Virus record (IMG/VR): IMGVR_UViG_3300048998_000054
Location: 1 to 50,746 of that record
DNA: 50,746 nucleotides
Origin: a virus
Lineage: Duplodnaviria > Caudoviricetes
Reading direction: 5' to 3' (one strand)
Shown here one piece after another: positions 27,288-42,341 of the stretch. Position 1 is the first letter of the stretch. Each line of letters begins with the position of its first letter. The notes under the pieces are model-generated. The model saw only the letters and a list, made by a program, of their open reading frames with translations, was not told where the DNA came from and did not search any database. The position numbers were made by a program, and so were the translations under genes.

Positions 27288-27926
27288 ATGTACGCCGAAT
27301 ATTACCGCAGCCCAGAGCGGTTCCTCAACGTATTCTTTCTAGACGATGACCCTGTCGTGAGCGCGCAAGCTCTCTGCGACAGCCACGTCAGCAAGAGTAT
27401 TGTCGAGGCCGCTCAGGTGCTGTCTACTGTTTGGCACACGCAGGTTAGTGCGAACATGGATGCACAGTGGGTGCGCGCAGTAGAGCTTGACTGGCACATT
27501 CCTACGCCGGGCAGCCCTTACAGAGAACTCAAGTGGCTGCAAGCCCGGCTGTGTGGGCAGCGTATATACCGGCCAAACCATGAGCGGCATCCTTGCGTTG
27601 CATGGGCGTCGCTGTATGGCGGCAATTACGCGTGGCTGTATGCGCTGGGCTGCGCGCTGCTGGTGGAGTTCACTTACCGCACGGAGCGCATCCATGCCTG
27701 CACACCAGTATTACGGGCGCTGGAGCTCATGCCGCCAACACTGCTACCAACCGTTGACAAATACTGTGATGCACCCGCTGTTATGAGCAGCGATTTTATC
27801 ATCAGTGAAGATGCGGCCACTAACTACAAGAACTATTATCGTAAATCCAAGGTGATGTCTCTACAGTACACCCGCAGAGCGCCGCCTAAGTGGATTGCCG
27901 ATGTAGCCATTTACAAGGAGCAGTAA
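27288..27926 (+). CDS. Pyrimidine-dimer DNA glycosylase / endonuclease V family protein
   Basis: NVFFLDDDP..A..LCDSHVSKSIVEAAQVLST, YRPNHERHPC..W...NYAWLY, YKNYY, RRAPPKW. Confidence 0.78.
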   Translation: MYAEYYRSPERFLNVFFLDDDPVVSAQALCDSHVSKSIVEAAQVLSTVWHTQVSANMDAQWVRAVELDWHIPTPGSPYRELKWLQARLCGQRIYRPNHERHPCVAWASLYGGNYAWLYALGCALLVEFTYRTERIHACTPVLRALELMPPTLLPTVDKYCDAPAVMSSDFIISEDAATNYKNYYRKSKVMSLQYTRRAPPKWIADVAIYKEQ

Positions 27927-28168
27927 TGGTAAAAGCTTCAACGCCGGTGTACATTATTGGCCGGGTGACGGCGGTCACAAGACGCGAGGTGACCATCCGA
28001 GCAAAAGACCGGCACGATAAACTGCGTGACACCAAGCTGGACACGGCGCATTGCAGCGCACTAAACCTTTCCGTTGATGAGCAGCCCATACAGGTGCCGC
28101 AATGGTGGGCGCATCAAAACAAAATTCCTTTCACACAACAACCACGGGAGCAGCAAAATGAATCTTGA
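27926..28168 (+). CDS. Hypothetical protein
   Basis: AAGGAG RBS; TAATG coupling. Confidence 0.6.
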   Translation: MVKASTPVYIIGRVTAVTRREVTIRAKDRHDKLRDTKLDTAHCSALNLSVDEQPIQVPQWWAHQNKIPFTQQPREQQNES

Positions 28169-28955
28169 ACAATACCAACCCCTCGCCATGCGCACAGCCA
28201 AACGTATGGAGCCTATGCAGATGTTGCTGCACGGCGCTATGGGCTGCGGCAGTGAAGCAGGCGAATTGGCCGAAACAACTTTGAAGTTCGCGTTGAAGGG
28301 CATTTTTGACCGCACGAACACCGTGGAAGAAATCGGCGATGGCGTGTGGTTTGTCACTTACATCGCGGAAACGCTGGGCATGCAGATCGCCGACACCGCA
28401 CGCGGCTTGAAAGCACCGCCATTGGTGCGCGAATTGCGGGTGCCCGCCTCCGCACATGAGGCAGTTGCCGCCACGCTGACATACAACGCCACGGGCGCGC
28501 AAATTCTCACCATTATCAAAGCCCACGTGTTCTACGGTAAGGCGCTGGACTTAATGGCCCTGGAGCAGGCGCTGCGCGGTTACGTGGCGGCCATTTACTT
28601 CTGCTGCGAAGCGTTCAACGTGAACATCACAGAAGTGCTGGAGCACAACATCGCCAAGCTGCGCAAACGCTACGCCGAAAAATACAGCGACGTGGCCGCC
28701 ATTACACGGGCGGATAAGATCGACGATAATTCTCCATCAGAATTGGACATCGACCCAGCTACTCACCCATCTTACAACGTTCATAATCATGCTCTAGCTG
28801 ATGGCGGCGCAGGGCCAACCGGTACTTACGTAGGCTTAACTGAGGCCACAAGCAAGGAAGCCGACGAACGTTTGTTTGCGGCAGGCCGTGCGCTGTATGA
28901 CGCAGAGCGCGCAGCCGAAGACACAATGGCCCGTAACCAAGGCCGGGCAGAATAA
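28158..28955 (+). CDS. MazG-like NTP pyrophosphohydrolase
   Basis: YQPLAMRTA, GCGSEAGELAE, EEIGDGVWF, NIAKLRKRY. Confidence 0.82.
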   Translation: MNLEQYQPLAMRTAKRMEPMQMLLHGAMGCGSEAGELAETTLKFALKGIFDRTNTVEEIGDGVWFVTYIAETLGMQIADTARGLKAPPLVRELRVPASAHEAVAATLTYNATGAQILTIIKAHVFYGKALDLMALEQALRGYVAAIYFCCEAFNVNITEVLEHNIAKLRKRYAEKYSDVAAITRADKIDDNSPSELDIDPATHPSYNVHNHALADGGAGPTGTYVGLTEATSKEADERLFAAGRALYDAERAAEDTMARNQGRAE

Positions 28956-28961
28956 GTTTCA

Positions 28962-28998
28962 CTCGGCCACGGAGAGCCGAGCAATTAAATATCTCCGT
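28962..28998 (+). promoter_or_regulatory. H-type RNA pseudoknot in the leader of the probable SSB gene
   Basis: S1 CTCGGC(28962-67)/GCCGAG(28976-81); 1-nt loop; S2 ACGGAGA(28969-75)/TCTCCGT(28992-98); A-rich 10-nt loop. Confidence 0.7.
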
Positions 28999-29037
28999 AC
29001 CCTCTCGTCCACAAGTCCACTATTTTGGAGAATCAAA

Positions 29038-29904
29038 ATGGCAACAGCAGCAAAGAAAGTAGCAGTAAAACCAGCCGCAAAAACACCGCCTAAAAAGCCC
29101 GGCACCGCACTCACCCTGTGGGAACAGGAAATGGCTGAGGCAGCCGTAAGCCAAGGTTCCAAGGAAAAGAACACTGGCGGGGCCAAGGCAATTTCGGTGC
29201 GCGGCGGTGTTCTGTCCGTGGACGGTAACGAAATTGATGGTAACGAGCTCCGCGTCATTGTACTCGCCAGCGTGTATGAAAATATGATGTACGGCGGCGA
29301 CTTTGACCCTGACACTCCTACCAGCCCAGTTTGCTACGCCTTCAGTGAAGACGGCGGTGACGACATGGCCCCGCATGCAGAAGCTCCGGAAAAGGTGAAC
29401 GACACCTGCCTCGGCTGCCCTAATAACGAATGGGGCAGCGCTGACAAGGGCCGTGGCAAAGCGTGCAAGAATGTGCGCCGCCTGATGCTCATCACAGAAG
29501 ACGCTCTGGAAGATGGTGCATCTATAAAGGATGCAGAAATGCGCATCCTGAAACTGCCGGTCACCAGCGTCAAAAACTGGACGAACTATGTCAAGAGTAC
29601 TCTGGCAGAAGACGTCAAGCGGCCAAGCTGGGGCGTCGTCACCACCATCAAAGTTAAGAACGATGCAAAGACTCAATTCAAAGTGAACTTTGAATTTGAA
29701 GAACTCATCGAATTTAACGATGAAACTTTTGCCGCCTTGAAGAAGAAAGTCAAGGAAGCAGAAAGCAACATTGCATCAGCTTACCCGGTGTTTGAAGAAG
29801 AGGAAAAACCAGCAAAAGGCCGCAAGGTTATTCCTATCAAAAACCAGCGCGTTGCGGCCAAGCCTGCTGCCAAGGCAGCCGTAAAAGGCAAGGGCAAGTA
29901 CTAA
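29038..29904 (+). CDS. Probable single-stranded DNA-binding protein
   Basis: 288 aa upstream of PolA; PVCYAF..CLGCPNNEWGS..GKACKN, LKLPVTSVKNW; Lys/Ala-rich tails; GGAG RBS. Confidence 0.6.
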   Translation: MATAAKKVAVKPAAKTPPKKPGTALTLWEQEMAEAAVSQGSKEKNTGGAKAISVRGGVLSVDGNEIDGNELRVIVLASVYENMMYGGDFDPDTPTSPVCYAFSEDGGDDMAPHAEAPEKVNDTCLGCPNNEWGSADKGRGKACKNVRRLMLITEDALEDGASIKDAEMRILKLPVTSVKNWTNYVKSTLAEDVKRPSWGVVTTIKVKNDAKTQFKVNFEFEELIEFNDETFAALKKKVKEAESNIASAYPVFEEEEKPAKGRKVIPIKNQRVAAKPAAKAAVKGKGKY

Positions 29905-30251: not shown

Positions 30252-30476
30252 ATGAATGAGCAGATGACATGGGCTGAGCTTAACAGCACCATCATGGAAA
30301 TGAACGAAGAGCAAGTGCTTAAGCTGCTTCAGGAAGAAGCCACGGCAGAGAATATTCGTTTCGCTTGGATGTTCCGGCTGCACTCTCGTTACAATGTGCT
30401 GCGCGTCAACCGCGAACGCATTGAGCTGTCCAACGGTCAATTCAAAATACAGGGAGCCGTAGATGGCAAAAATTAA
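30252..30476 (+). CDS. Hypothetical protein upstream of the polymerase
   Basis: GGGAG RBS; 74-aa helical ORF. Confidence 0.7.
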   Translation: MNEQMTWAELNSTIMEMNEEQVLKLLQEEATAENIRFAWMFRLHSRYNVLRVNRERIELSNGQFKIQGAVDGKN

Positions 30477-32406
30477 CCCTATAGGGCTGGACTTTGAAAC
30501 AGACCCTATCCGCAACCGGCCCAATTACCCGCCAAAGCCAGTGAGCTTTAGCCTGCAGATGCCCGGCGAACGCAAACCAACATTCTATAGCTGGGGCCAC
30601 TACACTGGCGGCAACAATTGCAGCTTGAAGGATGCCACCAGAATTCTCAAAGCGGCCTACAAGGAAGCCTCCCCAGAAACCCCTATACTGTGCCAGAACG
30701 GCAAGTTCGACTGGGACGTGGCAGAGACTCATATGGGCCTTGCGCTGCCCAGCTGGGAGAAAACACACGACACTATGTTCCTGCTGTTCTTGGATGACCC
30801 GCACCAGCGTGAGCTCAGTCTTAAGCCCAGCGCGGAACGTTACTTAGGCATGAAGCCCGAAGAGCAGGATGCCGTAAAGGACTGGCTGTTGCAGCACAAG
30901 AAGCAGCTGGAACATGACTTCCCAGAAATTGTGGAGTGGTTTGGCGGCATCAAACCATCCAACGCCGGGGCATTTATCGCCTACGCGCCGGGCAACATTG
31001 TGCAGCCCTATGCAGACGGCGACGTTATTCGTACGGTTAAGCTGTTCAACAAGCTGCACCCTATTGTGGTAGGTAAGCGCGGCATGGGCGAGGCCTACGA
31101 CCGCGAGCGCCGGTTGCTGCCTATCCTGCTGCGTAACGAGCGTGAAGGCATACGCGTAGACACCAAATCGCTGGAGCGCGACCAGCCCCTGTTTGAAGCA
31201 GCGCAGGCCAAAACGGATGCATGGATACGCAAGGCGCTTAAAACGCCGGGCCTTGACCTTGACAAAGATGCAGAAGTGGCGGCAGCGTTTGAGAAGAACG
31301 ACTCCCTAAGCGAATGGACTTTGACGCCAACCGGGCGCAAGTCTGTCAGCAAAAAGAACATGAAGATTAGCCACTTCCGTGACCGCAAGTTGGCAGCCGC
31401 CTACAGCTATCGGCAGAAGTGCGCAACCATTCTGGAAACGTTTATCCGTCCTTGGCAGCGCTTTACCACAGACGGCTGGATGCACACGACATGGAACCAA
31501 GTGCGGCAACCAAAGGGCAGCGACAGCGGCGGCACCCGTACAGGGCGGCCAAGCACCAGCAACCCTAACTTCCTGAACATGCCCCGTAACATGAAGGACG
31601 TTGACGAGATGGGCGGCTTCATTATGCCGACGCATATCAGCGGGCTGCCAACCATGCCACGCATCCGCAGTTACATTCTGCCGGACACGCCAAAGCACGT
31701 TATTGGCCGCCGAGATTATAACCAGCAAGAGTTGCGCGTGCTGGCCCACTTTGAAGATGGCCTGCTGCTGGACGCCTACCTGCAGAACCCACGGCTAGAC
31801 GTACATGAGTTTGTGCGTGAGCTTATCCAAGACATGACCAGCCTCGACCCCGGCCGCTCATTTACCAAGACCTTGAACTTCGGTTACATTTACGGCCAAG
31901 GCCTCGGCAGCTTGGCAGAGAAGATGGAGCAGACAGTAGATTACGTTAAGCGCTTACGGGCAGCGCAGATGAGCGCCTTGCCGGGCTTCAAGTCTCTGAA
32001 TGATGGCGTCAAGAAAATTGGCAAGAGCGGCGACTTTATTACGACGTGGGGCGGCCGCCAATATTTCCAAGAGCCAAGCGCGCTGATTAATGGCCGCATG
32101 GTGGAGTTCTCCTACAAGCTGCTCAACTACCTTATCCAAGGCAGCGCGGCGGACATTACCAAGGAGGCGCTCATACGGTACGATGGCGTGCGCAAGGAAG
32201 GCCGCCTGATGGTAACGGTGTACGATGAGATTGATATCTCAGTACCGAAGGGCGCGCTCAAGAGTGAAATGCTGTTGTTGCGTGACGCCATGATGTCCAT
32301 CGACTTAGACGTCCCCCTTATGAGTGACGGCGAATGGGGCGTCAATCTCGGCAACTTGGCGGTGCTCAAGGAACCTAAACCTAACTTAACGAAGTGGGGC
32401 CTGTAA
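30463..32406 (+). CDS. DNA polymerase family A with 3'-5' exonuclease
   Basis: DFET and NGKFD exonuclease motifs; TRTGRPSTSNPNFLN; DYNQQELR (A); KTLNFGYIYG (B); IQGSAADITK; VYDEI (C). Confidence 0.95.
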   Translation: MAKINPIGLDFETDPIRNRPNYPPKPVSFSLQMPGERKPTFYSWGHYTGGNNCSLKDATRILKAAYKEASPETPILCQNGKFDWDVAETHMGLALPSWEKTHDTMFLLFLDDPHQRELSLKPSAERYLGMKPEEQDAVKDWLLQHKKQLEHDFPEIVEWFGGIKPSNAGAFIAYAPGNIVQPYADGDVIRTVKLFNKLHPIVVGKRGMGEAYDRERRLLPILLRNEREGIRVDTKSLERDQPLFEAAQAKTDAWIRKALKTPGLDLDKDAEVAAAFEKNDSLSEWTLTPTGRKSVSKKNMKISHFRDRKLAAAYSYRQKCATILETFIRPWQRFTTDGWMHTTWNQVRQPKGSDSGGTRTGRPSTSNPNFLNMPRNMKDVDEMGGFIMPTHISGLPTMPRIRSYILPDTPKHVIGRRDYNQQELRVLAHFEDGLLLDAYLQNPRLDVHEFVRELIQDMTSLDPGRSFTKTLNFGYIYGQGLGSLAEKMEQTVDYVKRLRAAQMSALPGFKSLNDGVKKIGKSGDFITTWGGRQYFQEPSALINGRMVEFSYKLLNYLIQGSAADITKEALIRYDGVRKEGRLMVTVYDEIDISVPKGALKSEMLLLRDAMMSIDLDVPLMSDGEWGVNLGNLAVLKEPKPNLTKWGL

Positions 32407-33132: not shown

Positions 33133-33276
33133 ATGTTCATATTCTGGATTAAATTCATCGCTATTTCTTTTGGTACAGGCGCGGGGCTTCTGGCGCTGTT
33201 GCTGCGGCCTAACCCTTACTGCCTAACGCTGACGTTGCTGGGCGTTATTTTCGTGTTGATAGGGCTGCTGTTATGA
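33133..33276 (+). CDS. Small two-helix membrane protein (47 aa)
   Basis: GAGGA RBS; manual translation MFIFWIKFIAISFGTGAGLLALLL; ATGA coupled. Confidence 0.5.
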   Translation: MFIFWIKFIAISFGTGAGLLALLLRPNPYCLTLTLLGVIFVLIGLLL

Positions 33277-33632
33277 GGCGCATCGCATCCAAAGGCTGGT
33301 GGCGGCGCTGGGTAATTGGCGCAGGCGGCTTTACAGGCTCTGTAATTCTGGAAGCCGTAGAGGACGCCGACCTAGCCCTTACCCCGCGCTGTGCGCTGCT
33401 AACTGAACTCTACGTGCATCCATTGCGCCGGGGCCAAGGCTGGGCCGCCACACTCATGCAGACAGCCTTTAAGTACGCGGACTCTAACGGGTTAGACCTC
33501 GTTACGTACGCCTCTCCGTTTGGCGTGCGGGGTATGTCTAAGAAGAAACTGCAGGAGTTCTACCTGCGCATGGGGTTCCAGTTTGCTAATGGCGGTGAAA
33601 CTATGGTGCGCTATGCCAAAGCTAGAAATTGA
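33273..33632 (+). CDS. GNAT family acetyltransferase
   Basis: LYVHPLRRGQGWA acetyl-CoA motif and FYLRMGF. Confidence 0.8.
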   Translation: MRRIASKGWWRRWVIGAGGFTGSVILEAVEDADLALTPRCALLTELYVHPLRRGQGWAATLMQTAFKYADSNGLDLVTYASPFGVRGMSKKKLQEFYLRMGFQFANGGETMVRYAKARN

Positions 33633-38118: not shown

Positions 38119-38952
38119 ATGAACGCCAAACAGTTTGCAGCAGCCCGCAAGGGAATCATAGAACACTTCGGCAAAGATGTTGCTGAGGGCAAGGAAACGA
38201 AAGAGTATTTGTCAGCAATCGCGCCGTTAGCGAAGTATGCCAAGATGGATAAGAGCCGTATTACGGCCTCCATTACCGCAGACTGGATTGCAGCAAACCC
38301 GGATTGGAAAGCAGCAGCGAAGAAAGTAGTGGCGCTGCCGCAGCCGGCCAACCCAGATCATGCAGTGTTTTGCGATGCCGAGCGTCGTACCTGTATTCGT
38401 GTTTCGGTTGACCGCAAATTTATTCGCTACATCCCTATGGATACAAGCCTGCATGTAGCGAAGGCAACGCACATGGAGTTCGAACAGCGTTACACGAACC
38501 ACATGAAAGATTATCCAGTCAAGCAGGCAGCACAGATGTATCTAGGTGCCAATTGGCTGGAGGCATCACCTGAAGCAAAGCGGCACCTAGAGTTTTTGAT
38601 CAGCGGCAAATTTAAAGATGCAGTTAAACCCCTCAATTTTGAAGACAAGGAATCTATCATGGCAACCGGCAAACCAGCAGTCAAAGCAGCAAAAAAAGTA
38701 GCAGCCCCTAAACCAGCGGCCAAAGCTGCAAAAGTATCGGCACCGAAAGCGGCAGCCAAAGAAGCGAAAGTCGCAGGTCCGGACAACCGCAAAATCACCG
38801 TGCTCGTTGGCGAAAACCCAAAGCGTGGCTCGGCGGCTGAACGTTTCGACCTGTACAAGAAAAATGCAACAGTCGATAAATATGTCGCAGCTGGCGGCAA
38901 GAAGGAAGACATCGGCTGGGACGTCAAAAAAGGCTTCATCTCCGTTGCCTAA
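38119..38952 (+). CDS. Protein with Lys/Ala-rich histone-H1-like linker and C-terminal NPKR...WD domain
   Basis: GGAG RBS; KPAVKAAKKVAAPKPAAKAAK linker; C-terminus paralogous to 35759..35980. Confidence 0.8.
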   Translation: MNAKQFAAARKGIIEHFGKDVAEGKETKEYLSAIAPLAKYAKMDKSRITASITADWIAANPDWKAAAKKVVALPQPANPDHAVFCDAERRTCIRVSVDRKFIRYIPMDTSLHVAKATHMEFEQRYTNHMKDYPVKQAAQMYLGANWLEASPEAKRHLEFLISGKFKDAVKPLNFEDKESIMATGKPAVKAAKKVAAPKPAAKAAKVSAPKAAAKEAKVAGPDNRKITVLVGENPKRGSAAERFDLYKKNATVDKYVAAGGKKEDIGWDVKKGFISVA

Positions 38953-39030: not shown

Positions 39031-39843
39031 ATGAAACTTGGAATATACATCCCCAGCCGGGGCAGGGCAGGTGCAGTCCGCACTCTTGAGTCAATACCGC
39101 TGGCACGGCTGGCAGATACGTGGGTCGTCACCACTCATGGTGAGAGAAAGTCGTACCTTAAAGCAGCGGCCTATATGGGGGCTGGGCCGTCATTCATACA
39201 AGCCCCCACCACAGTCACGAACATCGGCACCAAGCGCGATTGGATGGTGAAGCACGCCATAAAGAACGGCTACACCCACATCGTCATGTTGGATGATGAC
39301 CTTATCTTTGCCAAACGCCGCAAGGACGACCCCACCAAACTGCTGCCGCAGACGGCCAAAGACAACGAGGCAATGTTTAAGGCCATAGAGAAGCAGTTTA
39401 AAACTCACGAGCATGTTGGCATCACGGCCCGTGATGGGGCCAACCGCCACACTGAGCCGGTAATGTACGCCACAAGGATGATGCGCGTGCTGGGCTACAA
39501 TCTGGATTTGTTCAAAGGTGCCAGCCTGTCATTCGCCCGCATACCGCTCATGGAGGACTTCGACGTCACTCTGCAGTTGCTACGCTGGGGGCACCCTAAT
39601 GCCGTACTGACAAACTTCACGAACGACCAAGGCAGCAGCAACGCGCCGGGCGGCTGTAGCCTGTACCGCACCCCGGCTTTGCAGGAGGAGGCCGCCAACA
39701 TGCTGGCTGCACACCATCCAAATTTCGTCAAGGTGGTCGCCAAACCGGACAAGGGCGGCTGGGGTGGCGAGCGTATAGACGTGCAGATTGCCTGGAAGAA
39801 AGCCCTCGCCAGCGCTGCGCAAGGAGACCTGCCATGGGAGTGA
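39031..39843 (+). CDS. GT-A fold glycosyltransferase, TAGT/GREB1-like (probable DNA base glycosyltransferase)
   Basis: IYIPSRGRA, IVMLDDDL (DxD), MEDFDVTLQLL, SNAPGGC; lies next to the hydroxymethylase. Confidence 0.8.
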   Translation: MKLGIYIPSRGRAGAVRTLESIPLARLADTWVVTTHGERKSYLKAAAYMGAGPSFIQAPTTVTNIGTKRDWMVKHAIKNGYTHIVMLDDDLIFAKRRKDDPTKLLPQTAKDNEAMFKAIEKQFKTHEHVGITARDGANRHTEPVMYATRMMRVLGYNLDLFKGASLSFARIPLMEDFDVTLQLLRWGHPNAVLTNFTNDQGSSNAPGGCSLYRTPALQEEAANMLAAHHPNFVKVVAKPDKGGWGGERIDVQIAWKKALASAAQGDLPWE

Positions 39844-40106
39844 GCGCTATACACAAAATAGAATGGCAGAGTGGCGCAGGGCACTGCACAAAACATGTCG
39901 ACTTAGATAAAGTAATAGCTGTGGAGCTGAGCGCAGACTATTCTATTCACATGGAGTTTGTCCTGGTCATTCACTTCCAACTTTGCGACTGCCCCGTAGT
40001 GCTAGGAGGCTATGCCAATAATGAGGTGAAGTCTAGCTTAATAGCTGCGCACCAAGCTTTGTTAAACGCATGGGAACTTAGAAAGGCTCAGTCATGTGGA
40101 CAGTAA
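39834..40106 (+). CDS. Hypothetical protein
   Basis: AAGGAG RBS; overlaps both neighbours. Confidence 0.55.
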   Translation: MGVSAIHKIEWQSGAGHCTKHVDLDKVIAVELSADYSIHMEFVLVIHFQLCDCPVVLGGYANNEVKSSLIAAHQALLNAWELRKAQSCGQ

Positions 40107-40309
40107 TCCTTGTGACTATGGCGTTCCAAGCAGGGCACCCGCCAGAAGTAATGAGTACTGAGGTTCTGCATGCTTATCAGTACGCATCTAAACCGGCTTG
40201 TGAGAAGGACATGCAGGCTCTGAATGTTGCCTCTGACATCACCGTAACACGCGGCCCTTACACTGTAACAACTCAGGGCTTTTGTACCAAAATTCTAAGG
40301 AGAAAGTAA
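40094..40309 (+). CDS. Small hypothetical protein with hydrophobic N-terminus
   Basis: MWTVILVTMAF...YASKPACE...GFCTK; coupled to the next gene. Confidence 0.6.
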   Translation: MWTVILVTMAFQAGHPPEVMSTEVLHAYQYASKPACEKDMQALNVASDITVTRGPYTVTTQGFCTKILRRK

Positions 40310-41385
40310 TGACTCATGTAATTAAAGCGCACAACGTTAATGACGCCTTGCCAACCGCGCTGTGGCACCTGCACACCAAGGGTGAGATTGATGACAGCCG
40401 CAATGGCCGGGTGCTGGTGTCACCTACCCCTGTAATTACGGAGTACGCACGCCCAGACCAGCGAGTGTTGTTTGCCGCCAGCCGGGACGCCAACCCGTTC
40501 TTTCACTTCTTTGAAAGTCTGTGGATGTTGGCAGGCCGTAACGATGTTGAATTTCCCGCGCACTTTGCGGCCAATATCGCCAGCTTCAGTGACGACGGAG
40601 AAACGATTGCAGGGGCTTATGGCGAACGCTGGCGCAAACATTTTGGGTACGATCAACTTAAAATGATCATAGGGGAGCTTAAAGCCAACCCTAAAACTCG
40701 CCGCTGCGTTCTTACCATGTGGAGCGCAGGCTACGACGATCCACATTTACGAGGGGTTGTGAAGCCCGGCAGCAACGGCGACCTGTGGCTGGCGATGAAC
40801 GGCGGCAAGGACGTGCCCTGCAACACGCAGTGCTACTTTGACACGCTGGGCGGCAAGCTGAATATGACCGTCACCTGCCGCAGCAACGACGCCATCTGGG
40901 GCTGCTACGGCGCGAACATGGTTCACTTCTCCATGCTGCTGGAATATGTGGCGTGCAGCACGGGCATCCCTATGGGCGTGTACCGGCAGTTCAGCAACAA
41001 CTTCCACATTTATGCAGACCGTCCAGATGTACAGCGCCTGCATGACACCGCTGGCGTGCCCGTAATTGGCGTAGATGACCGTTACGCTACGCAAGAGCTG
41101 GCCCCTTACCCTCTCATCATAAGCGGCGGCGCTGCTCAGTTTGACAACGATCTGGCTTATTTCTTCAGTGTTTGGCGCGCTGATGAAATGCAACCTACGT
41201 CGACGTTTATGTCATCATTTTTTGCTAATGTGGCAGCGCCTTTATGGAACTCGCACTTGGCCTACAAGTTGGGGGATTTTGAGATGGCGCGAAACATGCT
41301 GGGGCTGTGCGATGCCGACGATTGGGCTTTGGCCTGCCACGAGTGGTTGCAACGCCGTGAGGAGAAGCGCAATGCCAAGGCTTAA
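40309..41385 (+). CDS. Thymidylate-synthase-fold enzyme, probable dUMP hydroxymethylase
   Basis: SRNG, RDANPFFHFFESLWMLAGRND, SDDG..GAYG.RWR, DVPCN (catalytic Cys), RSNDAIWGCYGAN, NNFHIY; AAGGAG RBS. Confidence 0.85.
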   Translation: MTHVIKAHNVNDALPTALWHLHTKGEIDDSRNGRVLVSPTPVITEYARPDQRVLFAASRDANPFFHFFESLWMLAGRNDVEFPAHFAANIASFSDDGETIAGAYGERWRKHFGYDQLKMIIGELKANPKTRRCVLTMWSAGYDDPHLRGVVKPGSNGDLWLAMNGGKDVPCNTQCYFDTLGGKLNMTVTCRSNDAIWGCYGANMVHFSMLLEYVACSTGIPMGVYRQFSNNFHIYADRPDVQRLHDTAGVPVIGVDDRYATQELAPYPLIISGGAAQFDNDLAYFFSVWRADEMQPTSTFMSSFFANVAAPLWNSHLAYKLGDFEMARNMLGLCDADDWALACHEWLQRREEKRNAKA

Positions 41386-41899
41386 CCCAGAGACCGTCGC
41401 TTTTATCGAGCGTGGCGGCCGCACACTGCGTTGCCATACAATGCCAATGCTGCAGACTCAGTCCGTGGCGGCGCACAGCTATGGCGTTGCATGGTGGTGC
41501 CACTTGTTGAGCGGCGAGTCTGGAGCGTCTGCCAAGCTGCTTATGGCAGCCTTAAAGCATGACGTGGCAGAGCATGAAACGGGTGACGTGCCAAGCCCGA
41601 CCAAGGATGCATTGAAAATAAGAAGTCTGCTCAATGCTTACGAGGCGCGCTTGGAAGAGTCCGCTGGGCTGCCCGTGCTGCACCTAACTGGGAACGAGGA
41701 TCGTATTTTAAAACTCGCGGACAGTCTGGAGCTCATGCAACATTGTGTGCGGGAGCGTCGCTACGGCAACCGCCACGATGAAATTGCAGAGATGTTCGCC
41801 AATGTGCGGCGTTACGCAGACACTCTTCTGGTTGCGGCAATTGACCATGAAGCCTTTACACTTGTAGTAAAAAATTGGGAGAAAGTAAATGAGCGCTAA
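41372..41899 (+). CDS. HD-domain 5'-deoxynucleotidase (YfbR-like)
   Basis: QSVAAHSY, LKHDVAEHETGDVPSP, LKLADSLE; GAGGAG RBS before ATG 41372. Confidence 0.85.
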   Translation: MPRLNPETVAFIERGGRTLRCHTMPMLQTQSVAAHSYGVAWWCHLLSGESGASAKLLMAALKHDVAEHETGDVPSPTKDALKIRSLLNAYEARLEESAGLPVLHLTGNEDRILKLADSLELMQHCVRERRYGNRHDEIAEMFANVRRYADTLLVAAIDHEAFTLVVKNWEKVNER

Positions 41900-42308
41900 C
41901 AGCATTCAAGTAGGTGGAGAGCACTACAAATCGCAATTGCAGCACTGGGATTTTGCGGCCGCAAATTTTGGCCCCGGTTACTTCCGTGGCAACGCCACCA
42001 AGTACGTAACGCGCAGCCGCAAAAAGAGCGGCCTTGAGGACCTTAAGAAAGCCCGCCACTACGTGTGCAAAATGCTTGAAGTGAATTGGGAAGCTTTGGG
42101 CTGGTCCTTGGCGGGGGCAACCAGCCGGGTGTGCAGCACCACCATTAAGACCATTGACTTCTCTAAGGCGAATGAGCTGAACCCGTGGGAGGCCGATGTA
42201 ATTGAACGCATTAGCCGAGCTGCTGGAAACTTTGCGCTGGGGGAAGTGATTGTGATTTTGGACGCCAAGATTAAAGCGATGGAACTTGCAGCGCCTACAC
42301 TGCTCTAA
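41889..42308 (+). CDS. DUF3310-like protein
   Basis: QVGGEHYK..QHWDF..GNATKYVTR...GLEDLKKARHY. Confidence 0.8.
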   Translation: MSANSIQVGGEHYKSQLQHWDFAAANFGPGYFRGNATKYVTRSRKKSGLEDLKKARHYVCKMLEVNWEALGWSLAGATSRVCSTTIKTIDFSKANELNPWEADVIERISRAAGNFALGEVIVILDAKIKAMELAAPTLL

Positions 42309-42310
42309 AT

Positions 42311-42341
42311 AAAATTGCCCGGTAACTAGCCGGGCAATTTT
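42311..42341. terminator. Bidirectional intrinsic terminator between the converging arms
   Basis: AAAATTGCCCGG-TAACTAG-CCGGGCAATTTT perfect 12-bp inverted repeat between two convergent stop codons. Confidence 0.85.

Follow-up and report, generated by a model that had tools for sequence, protein, structure and literature searches.

A phage operon predicted to make hydroxymethyluracil and to glycosylate it in DNA: a candidate dioxygenase-free route to a base like base J

Results

We examine an operon in the genome of a tailed phage, IMG/VR record IMGVR_UViG_3300048998_000054 (Duplodnaviria; Caudoviricetes), whose 50,746 bases, taken at full length, are called the window in what follows. The operon spans positions 39031 to 42308 of the plus strand and holds six translationally coupled genes, with neighbours overlapping by 1 to 14 bases. 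Four of the genes fall into known families: a GT-A glycosyltransferase of the TAGT family (39031..39843, 270 amino acids (aa); PF20691, phrog_842), a 358-aa enzyme of the thymidylate synthase (TS) fold that is a predicted dUMP hydroxymethylase (40309..41385; PF00303, phrog_5131), a YfbR-like HD 5'-deoxynucleotidase that is a candidate dTMP phosphatase (41372..41899; PF12917), and a 139-aa DUF3310 protein that is a candidate gp1.7-like nucleotide kinase (41889..42308; PF11753). A Shine-Dalgarno-like GGAG lies upstream of each of the four starts inspected, which are those of these same genes. We read the operon as a two-stage pathway in which 5-hydroxymethyluracil (hmU) would be made before replication and would then be glycosylated in the DNA to a base-J-like glycosyl-hmU, and we put the probability of this reading at roughly 0.6.

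An earlier note on this DNA had named the same four genes and had described the genome as complete. Both statements stand. Searches with hidden Markov models (HMMs) return PF20691, PF00303, PF12917 and PF11753 for plus-strand genes at the coordinates given here. The virus record is complete: the window has direct terminal repeats, and its completeness is estimated at 100%. The record comes from a soil metagenome, and the stretch is present in one sequencing run, its likely source; no RNA run is listed as containing it. A megablast search of the operon against 50,697 phage records gave no match at the nucleotide level.

The remaining two genes of the operon are small open reading frames (ORFs) on the plus strand between the transferase and the hydroxymethylase. 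The first (39834..40106, 90 aa) is translationally coupled and may not be a real gene; the second (40094..40309, 71 aa) has a stop that overlaps the start of the hydroxymethylase in the string TAATG. Neither has a Pfam or PHROG match, nor a homologue in the 80 related loci described below.

We turn to the glycosyltransferase. Against the TAGT family PF20691 it scores 81.4 bits (E 1.1e-22; cut-off 27.5) over 203 of the 205 profile positions, and in a six-frame search it is the one PF20691 match in the whole genome, at 82 bits. It also matches PHROG 842, 'beta-glucosyl-HMC-alpha-glucosyltransferase', at 2.6e-51. The translation shows the motifs IPSRGR, DDD, MEDFD and GG, and D88-D90 together with 28 other positions are invariant in an alignment of 38 homologues; the window transferase has all of these invariant residues because it is itself part of the alignment. 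It matches 230 phage records at about 27% identity, most of them from T-even-like phages that infect Klebsiella and Escherichia, and 706 homologues are found at E <= 1e-5, with PF20691 present in 120 of 120 among the matches listed. No second glycosyltransferase is found in the window with PF00535 or with a T4 beta-glucosyltransferase (beta-GT) profile.

The structural comparison leads to the same family. The AF2 model is confident (pLDDT 92.7) and has a GT-A fold. The PDB matches listed for it are COLGALT1, GnT-I, TarS and TarP, at TMq 0.44-0.55, and the matches in BFVD are TAGT proteins up to TMq 0.90. The viral models that match best are those of phiRSL1 TAGT proteins and of the beta-alpha transferase of Klebsiella phage PKO111 (TMq 0.75-0.90). 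A fold search of 39031..39843 had been proposed as a check, and it returns GT-A matches in the PDB and TAGT models in BFVD at TMq 0.82-0.90. At the level of sequence, solved structures give nothing meaningful, the best match being an unrelated chain at E 0.27. The public gene call for the transferase (P0002) is 222 aa long, which is 82% of the 270-aa ORF. The homologues and the Pfam profile cover residues 3-265 of the ORF starting at 39031 (94-98%), so the public call is too short, and the 270-aa form is likely to be the actual protein.

The TS-fold enzyme matches PF00303 (1.7e-16, 60.6 bits) and PHROG 5131, 'thymidylate synthase' (1.5e-111). The question is which pyrimidine it takes and what it puts on it. 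The text available of a 2026 study of the ThyA superfamily gives the diagnostic positions in E. coli numbering: Cys146 is catalytic; Asn177 selects dUMP and Asp there selects dCMP; the bulky Leu143 shuts out water, and Asp or Glu in its place correlates with hydroxymethyl products; and Asn replacing Asp169 marks the 5-hydroxy-dCMP synthases (PMC13326640). The window enzyme reads RSNDAIWGCYGAN. In a 12-sequence alignment its KDVPC places Asp at position 143 and the catalytic cysteine at 146; the cysteine column is invariant, and the residue is C171 in the window protein. The corresponding region is KDRPC in the SPO1-like enzyme, KDLPC in M6 and SDFMC in T4 gp42, and ThyA and Td have Leu. The string RSND shows that Asp169 is kept, and GCYGAN shows Asn at the 177 position, its distance from the catalytic cysteine being greater by one residue than in ThyA. 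This one-residue insertion before the Asn, which had already been remarked on from the sequence, turns out to be common to the clade: G-x-x-G-[AS]-N is a clade-wide motif, and the G-x-x-G-A-N spacing recurs in M6, CN2, PhiJL001 and MW202897 and in the SPO1L4 enzyme (GTFGAN). Asp occupies the 177 position in T4 gp42 (GFRND), Xp12 (PYD) and MilA (SD). The SPO1L4 enzyme, our SPO1-like representative, is annotated 'hypothetical protein', and we take it to be a homologue of SPO1 gp29.

Sequence identity and phylogeny place the enzyme in the same way. In the alignment it is 51% identical to the enzyme of M6, along its whole length, 50% to that of CN2 (47% and 46% by tblastn), 47% to PhiJL001 gp24, 44% to MW202897 and 31% to the SPO1L4 enzyme (31-33% over all comparisons), with 19% to ThyA and 17% to gp42. 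We built a quick maximum-likelihood tree of 73 rows, in which gp42, Xp12, CBA120 and the SPO1-like enzyme lie on long branches. The window enzyme falls inside a 66-row clade with M6, CN2, PhiJL001 and MW202897 (SH-aLRT 93), to which the SPO1-like enzyme is sister (SH-aLRT 92); ThyA, Td and Xp12 form a separate group (97*), and T4 gp42 also stands apart. A tree of 40309..41385 with ThyA, dUMP hydroxymethylases and T4 gp42 had been proposed as a check, and ours places the enzyme with those of the hmU pathway. The enzyme is thus very probably a dUMP hydroxymethylase making 5-hydroxymethyl-dUMP (hmdUMP), as judged from its residues and its position in the tree. Two other assignments were rejected. 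A 5-hydroxy-dCMP synthase of the RB69 gp48 / DLP3 gp80 type does not fit the retained Asp169 and the Asn at the 177 position, and a T-even dCMP hydroxymethylase of the T4 gp42 type does not fit the Asn, rather than Asp, at the specificity position and the identity of 17%.

The hydroxymethylases of M6 and CN2, phages of the type with a DNA kinase and an amino acid:DNA transferase (ADDT), nest within the clade of hydroxymethylases that are linked to a transferase. It would seem from this that the hmU core was conserved while the tailoring module downstream of it was exchanged.

The next question is whether the association of transferase and hydroxymethylase holds beyond the window. A single-protein query returned one locus, and an alignment-based scan of IMG/VR was used instead; it gave 344 candidate stretches, of which 291 were confirmed, and the best 80 loci were kept, with 37-52% identity (best segment) to the window transferase. 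Neighbours were counted with local hmmsearch (E <= 1e-4) in the 7 kb to either side of the transferase. A TS-fold gene is present in 76 of the 80 loci. Three of the four loci that have none carry the transferase near a contig end, and the fourth is L082. Asp143, Asp169 and G..G[AS]N occur together in 71 of these 76 neighbours, and the cytosine-type Asp is seen in no member of this parsed set. Among the remaining five, a contig end truncates two, and the motifs could not be parsed in three. Taken together, the linkage and the hmU-type motifs are the strongest evidence that we have for a transferase clade working on hmU-derived DNA. The association of this clade with hmU-type hydroxymethylases is strong. 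DUF3310 genes are near the transferase in 51 of the 80 loci and HD genes in 33, both counts being lower bounds obtained with four-sequence profiles, and an ADDT and a P-loop 5-hydroxymethyldeoxyuridine (5-hmdU) DNA kinase (HMUDK) are found in one locus each.

The same neighbourhoods contain a further gene that the window lacks, a feature absent from the earlier note. It is similar to PF18723, the family that Pfam calls '5-hmdU DNA kinase, helical domain'. Such a gene is found with the transferase in 75 of the 80 loci, and in three of them Pfam confirms the family at 1e-42 to 1e-48. Examples are L014:3869-4750, L047:189-1040 and L024:7683-8606; PhiJL001 gp19 (L011:6635-7501) and LuckyBarnes gp38 (L012:9597-10451) are also PF18723 proteins. 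The family has an invariant Cys-Glu-x-Asp-Lys-Tyr motif, and we believe it to be the former aGPT-Pplase clade 1. With the P-loop kinase in only one locus and PF18723 in 75, the protein may partner the transferase or supply a second activity in the sugar pathway, and the Pfam name may be too narrow. The complete genome of MW202897 (40 kb) shares the four genes of the window and has PF18723 nowhere, so the four-gene version recurs; the fragment records L017 and L076 are also without it. In the text available of the in vitro reconstitution of the M6 pathway, the PF18723 protein gp55 is dispensable (PMC8989533). Given MW202897 and gp55, the transferase can probably work alone. One locus, L028 (IMGVR_UViG_3300020576_001247), carries the transferase together with an ADDT, a P-loop HMUDK and two PF18723-like genes, and is possibly a hybrid of the sugar and amino-acid routes.

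The two genes that follow the hydroxymethylase point to nucleotide supply. The HD protein matches PF12917 at 48.9 bits (8.2e-13; cut-off 25.9), and its translation carries KHDVAEHETGD, with the HD metal-binding dyad. Orthologues stand just after the hydroxymethylase in MW202897 (44% identity), PhiJL001 (31%) and M6 (32%), and the equivalent gene of CN2 is annotated as a 5'-deoxynucleotidase. The general hmU pathway, as the text available of PMC8989533 describes it, uses a dTMPase, a dTTPase, a dCMP deaminase and a dNMP kinase. It is because of this dTMPase that we infer, reasonably in our view, such a role for the HD enzyme; possibly the MazG-like enzyme encoded elsewhere in the window would clear dTTP/dUTP in the same pathway.

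The DUF3310 protein matches PF11753 (4.8e-11, 43 bits) and several PHROGs named 'nucleotide kinase' (best 2.4e-15), and its orthologues hold the same position in M6 (42%), MW202897 (35%) and PhiJL001 (38%). In T7 gp1.7, a 'nucleotide kinase', DUF3310 occupies residues 122-184 (4.5e-23); the domain is thus at the C-terminus of gp1.7 and at the N-terminus of the window protein. The earlier note does not remark on this shared domain. Among the titles and the starts of abstracts that a literature search returned, none concerned the function of the domain. We propose with low to moderate confidence that the protein may be a gp1.7-like kinase for hmdUMP. The trio of hydroxymethylase, HD and DUF3310 genes is orthologous and syntenic in M6, PhiJL001 and MW202897; CN2 has the same order for the first two, its third gene having been left out of the comparison. 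In M6, according to the text available, thymidine hypermodification is built from 5-hmdU incorporated during replication (PMC8989533).

Other enzymes that might act on hmU were sought by six-frame HMM searches of the whole 50.7-kb genome at E <= 1. There is no match to PF18748 (5-hmdU DNA kinase), PF18723, PF18724 (ADDT), PF12851 (Tet_JBP) or PF00145 (C5 methyltransferase). A local profile built from 28 unique PF18723-like sequences matched no window ORF of at least 30 aa at better than E 1.4. With profiles of the M6 ADDT, HMUDK and Nmad5, of the PhiJL001 dCMP deaminase and of T4 beta-GT, no window ORF had a match under E 0.1. No gene for NDP-sugar (nucleoside diphosphate sugar) synthesis or sugar tailoring turned up among the scanned plus-strand early and middle ORFs. 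The earlier note had recognised no kinase, amino-acid transferase, TET/JBP dioxygenase or C5 methyltransferase in the genome, and on this the six-frame searches and the local profiles agree with it. By these searches the transferase is the only candidate tailoring enzyme of hmU in the genome.

We now describe the setting of the operon. Downstream, at 42315..42341, a hairpin can be read from the sequence, with arms TTGCCCGG and CCGGGCAA, a 7-base loop and flanking runs of A and T. It separates the operon from convergent minus-strand genes and is likely to be a two-way terminator; a consensus scan does not include it in its list. Directly upstream of the transferase, at 38119..38952 on the plus strand, lies a gene for a 277-aa protein with a Lys/Ala-rich, histone-H1-like stretch, a conserved neighbour. 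Neither Pfam nor PHROG recognises it. The search for homologues gave ten, one with PF07382, and phmmer matches occur in 31 of the 80 loci, usually in the same position before the transferase; some of the weak matches may reflect the low-complexity stretch. The protein was also tried as a hidden PF18723 and rejected, the hhalign comparison with the PF18723 alignment giving a probability of 0.1%.

Elsewhere in the plus-strand block are genes for a primase-helicase-like protein, a ligase, a MazG-like nucleoside triphosphate pyrophosphatase (28074..28955, plus strand; phrog_229 at 1.3e-26, no Pfam match), a family A DNA polymerase (30463..32406, plus strand; phrog_17 at 8.3e-75), a PD-(D/E)XK exonuclease, a helicase and a GNAT acetyltransferase. 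The nearest relative of the polymerase is that of Stenotrophomonas phage AXL3 (43% identity), and the terminase is closest to that of an uncultured phage from Manatee Spring, followed by those of Paracoccus phage Pkon1 and of Klebsiella JD001-like phages. The GNAT gene lies at 33273-33632 on the plus strand (PF13508, 1.7e-8), between the exonuclease and helicase genes; in PaMx11 an acetyltransferase is reported to complete a thymidine modification. A 342-aa protein (28876-29904, plus strand; phrog_27714, of unknown function, no Pfam match) adjoins the MazG-like gene; in 29 of the 80 loci a homologue lies some 6 kb upstream of the transferase. A 212-aa protein (27288-27926, plus strand) matches phrog_624, 'DNA binding protein', and has a sub-threshold match (E 2e-4, 22.1 bits against a cut-off of 23) to Pyr_excise, the family of T4 endonuclease V-type pyrimidine-dimer DNA glycosylases.

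Discussion

The pathway that we propose has two stages. In the first, as predicted from the sequence, the TS-fold enzyme would convert dUMP to hmdUMP. The HD 5'-deoxynucleotidase, perhaps with the MazG-like enzyme, would lower the dTMP/dTTP pool, the DUF3310 protein or host kinases would carry hmdUMP to the di- and triphosphate, and the family A polymerase of the phage would incorporate hmU for some or all T; a full replacement of T by hmU may be supposed. In the second, post-replicative stage, which family and gene context suggest, the single TAGT transferase would take the sugar from a host NDP-sugar and attach it to hmU in the DNA, at the 5-hydroxymethyl group. The product would be 5-(glycosyloxymethyl)uracil, a base-J-like base formed with no TET/JBP dioxygenase, and its benefit to the phage would likely be protection from restriction and other nuclease defences.

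The system can be described as T-even logic with uracil for cytosine, or as base-J chemistry minus the dioxygenase, if the assignments of the two enzymes are right. In the T-even phages, too, a TS-fold hydroxymethylase acts on the mononucleotide and the sugar is put onto the DNA after replication, and the window transferase shares PHROG 842 with the beta-glucosyl-HMC-alpha-glucosyltransferases of T2/T6 and Klebsiella phages. The differences are in the pyrimidine, which is cytosine there (Asp) and uracil in the window (Asn), and in the transferases: the window has none of the GT-B alpha/beta-glucosyltransferases of the T4 type, and it has one transferase, not two.

The kinetoplastid base J system (JBP1/2 and the base J glucosyltransferase, JGT) has the same predicted class of product, a sugar on the hydroxymethyl group of hmU in DNA. 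Kinetoplastids use the JBP dioxygenase, whereas the window is without TET/JBP. Because hmU would be made before replication by the TS-fold enzyme, the modification in the phage would be genome-wide rather than site-restricted, unlike kinetoplastid base J. The name TAGT comes from the association of the family with TET/JBP; the window transferase is instead associated with a TS-fold hydroxymethylase, with no PF12851. Iyer et al. defined the TAGT family in 2013 and are said to have predicted systems of this kind; a link between JGT and the phage GT-A enzymes was reportedly drawn in the same work.

The phages M6, YuA, CN2, ViI and PhiW-14 share the hydroxymethylase-HD-DUF3310 core with the window, the M6 proteins being 47-51%, 32% and 42% identical. 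In M6 the core is preceded by the ADDT (PF18724), the P-loop 5-hmdU DNA kinase (PF18748), PF18723 and Nmad5. The window has no P-loop 5-hmdU DNA kinase, ADDT, PF18723, Nmad5, PLP (pyridoxal phosphate) enzyme or radical SAM enzyme, and has a glycosyltransferase in place of the kinase and transferase chemistry. Phages of the SPO1 type have the gp29 dUMP hydroxymethylase, a dTMPase, a dTTPase/dUTPase, a dCMP deaminase and a dNMP kinase, and SPO1 is not known to modify its hmU further. The type shares with the window the pre-replicative route to hmU and the motifs KD.PC, RSND and G..GAN; the window adds the transferase and has no recognisable dCMP deaminase, dUTPase or P-loop kinase.

The closest counterparts are PhiJL001 (gp22-gp26), MW202897 (a Manatee Spring phage) and the Brevibacterium phage LuckyBarnes (gp38-gp41), which have the same set in the same order, namely transferase, hydroxymethylase, HD and DUF3310, with proteins 33-47% identical to those of the window. 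Their depositors describe the genes as 'glucosyl transferase' and as 'pyrimidine hmase' or similar to SPO1 dUMP hydroxymethylase. PhiJL001 differs in adding PF18723 (gp19), Nmad5 (gp23) and a dCMP deaminase, LuckyBarnes in having two transferases, PF18723 and a 517-aa hydroxymethylase, and MW202897 in that its transferase directly abuts the hydroxymethylase with no small ORFs between them. We found no published base analysis for any of the three.

Several published studies bear on the class. In the portions of their texts that are available, Burke et al. (2021) and Pyle et al. (2023/2024) describe GT-A (TAGT-like) transferases that decorate hydroxymethyl-pyrimidines in phage DNA, as is predicted for the window; the characterised enzymes differ in acting on TET-made 5-hydroxymethylcytosine (5hmC). 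According to the same portions of Pyle et al., such phage GT-A enzymes add sugar to 5hmC in DNA and match the T. cruzi JGT in structure. Their metavirome survey finds the GT-A matches about evenly split between 5mYOX and ThyS neighbours; in the text covered, the ThyS neighbours are not typed as uracil or cytosine enzymes, and there is no assay on 5hmU. The excerpt of a PNAS 2026 paper on phage T-dioxygenases concerns, like Burke et al. (2021), the dioxygenase route. The sugars of SP-15, YerA41 and Carin-5 are carried on a dihydroxypentyl or similar uracil linker, a different chemistry, in the part of PMC12686479 available. The earlier note had presented glycosyl-hmU as a base not chemically shown in a phage. 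Our literature search, too, found no paper with chemically shown glycosylated hmU or base J in phage DNA; the module itself is neither rare nor unseen, given PhiJL001, MW202897 and the ThyS neighbours of Pyle et al. The class is large, partly anticipated and chemically uncharacterised, and the window phage is one member of it.

A number of observations count against glycosyl-hmU as the product, and we collect them here. The only biochemically named relative in PHROG 842 is the beta-glucosyl-HMC-alpha-glucosyltransferase, and the T-even beta-alpha transferase adds glucose to glucosyl-hmC, so that its acceptor is a sugar and not a base hydroxyl. The PF18723 gene that stands directly beside the transferase in the great majority of relatives is absent from the window, and the transferase might need this missing partner. 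The DUF3310 protein resembles T7 gp1.7 over 33 residues only (BLASTP, E 3e-4), and with no more than this core in common, an hmdUMP kinase activity is to be treated as a lead rather than as a finding. Neither a dCMP deaminase nor a dUTPase, a thymidylate-kinase-like protein or an AAA_18 P-loop kinase is found in the genome at E <= 1, and the flux to hmdUTP therefore rests on the host and on the candidate role of DUF3310. The DNA of PhiJL001, whose gp22 is mentioned in the phage 9g paper, is cut normally by restriction enzymes, as the text available of that paper has it (PMC4276943); the same module being present there, the modification in PhiJL001 may be absent, partial or invisible to the enzymes used. 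Finally, our search found no nucleoside analysis for this phage or for any relative.

These points must be weighed with the alternatives. One alternative, unlikely on balance, keeps the hmU but makes the final base more complex, through partners that we do not recognise (the 90-aa and 71-aa ORFs, the 277-aa protein or the GNAT protein at 33273-33632) or through a sugar that is not glucose or is tailored further. The two orphan ORFs are indeed coupled inside the operon, the 277-aa protein recurs just upstream of the transferase in related loci, and a GNAT gene lies within the replication block. The orphan ORFs, however, have no counterpart in the 80 loci, and MW202897 has none between transferase and hydroxymethylase; the GNAT gene is 5.4 kb distant, and the scan of early and middle ORFs gave no gene for making or tailoring an NDP-sugar.

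It is slightly less probable that the phage carries plain or partial hmU, with a transferase that is inactive on DNA for want of its PF18723 partner, or that is a relic. The frequency of PF18723 beside the transferase in relatives, and its absence from the window, speak for this. The transferase ORF, on the other hand, is intact and its model is confident, MW202897 and the two fragments keep a transferase where no PF18723 is present, and the M6 counterpart is dispensable in vitro in the account already cited.

That the transferase modifies a polymer of the host envelope, a protein or a small molecule, in the manner of the prophage enzyme TarP, and stands beside the hydroxymethylase by accident, we consider improbable. 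Its best solved matches are non-DNA GT-A enzymes, among them TarS and TarP of wall teichoic acid, and no solved DNA GT-A structure is among the matches listed. An incidental neighbourhood would nonetheless hardly explain why 76 of 80 loci have an hmU-type TS-fold gene nearby, and 75 of 80 are linked to PF18723, a family tied to the modification of 5-hmdU in DNA; the transferase gene also belongs to the replication and nucleotide block and is not grouped with genes for lysis or lysogenic conversion, and its family HMM is TAGT. Very improbable indeed is an ordinary thymidylate synthase, or a dCMP hydroxymethylase or hydroxylase, with an acceptor other than hmU: public records of relatives say 'thymidylate synthase' and the best solved sequence match is the CMP hydroxymethylase MilA (4.8e-15), but Asp replaces Leu143, Asn stands at the 177 position where MilA, T4 gp42 and Xp12 have Asp, Asp169 is kept, unlike in the 5-hydroxy-dCMP synthases, and the tree sets the enzyme apart from both the ThyA/Td/Xp12 group and T4 gp42.

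Pre-replicative synthesis of hmU followed by glycosylation of the DNA is thus the reading that we retain. In a wider form, for which we see about even odds, soil and aquatic phages of this type would package glycosyl-hmU in place of thymine by means of the four-gene module (TAGT transferase, hydroxymethylase, HD and DUF3310), with no dioxygenase. In its boldest form the base would be true base J, beta-D-glucosyl-hmU.

Conclusions

If the proposal is true, a base tied so far to kinetoplastids and their relatives would be a widespread phage modification, made by a dioxygenase-free route; the related IMG/VR stretches number at least 291. Taken at its boldest, the proposal would derive the kinetoplastid JGT from phage enzymes that worked originally on hmU made before replication. 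The hmU core would then be a platform for different chemistries, kinase and amino-acid chemistry in M6 or sugar chemistry in the window phage.

There would be practical consequences as well. T4 beta-GT modifies 5hmU in duplex DNA only when it is mispaired with G, in the text available of PMC4111573, and because of this limit a natural transferase for hmU:A pairs would be useful for mapping 5hmU and for synthesising base-J DNA. Cultured phages with the same module exist, namely PhiJL001, a phage of Alphaproteobacteria, and LuckyBarnes. DNA of this kind may escape restriction and CRISPR nucleases, and it may bias the sequencing of environmental viromes.

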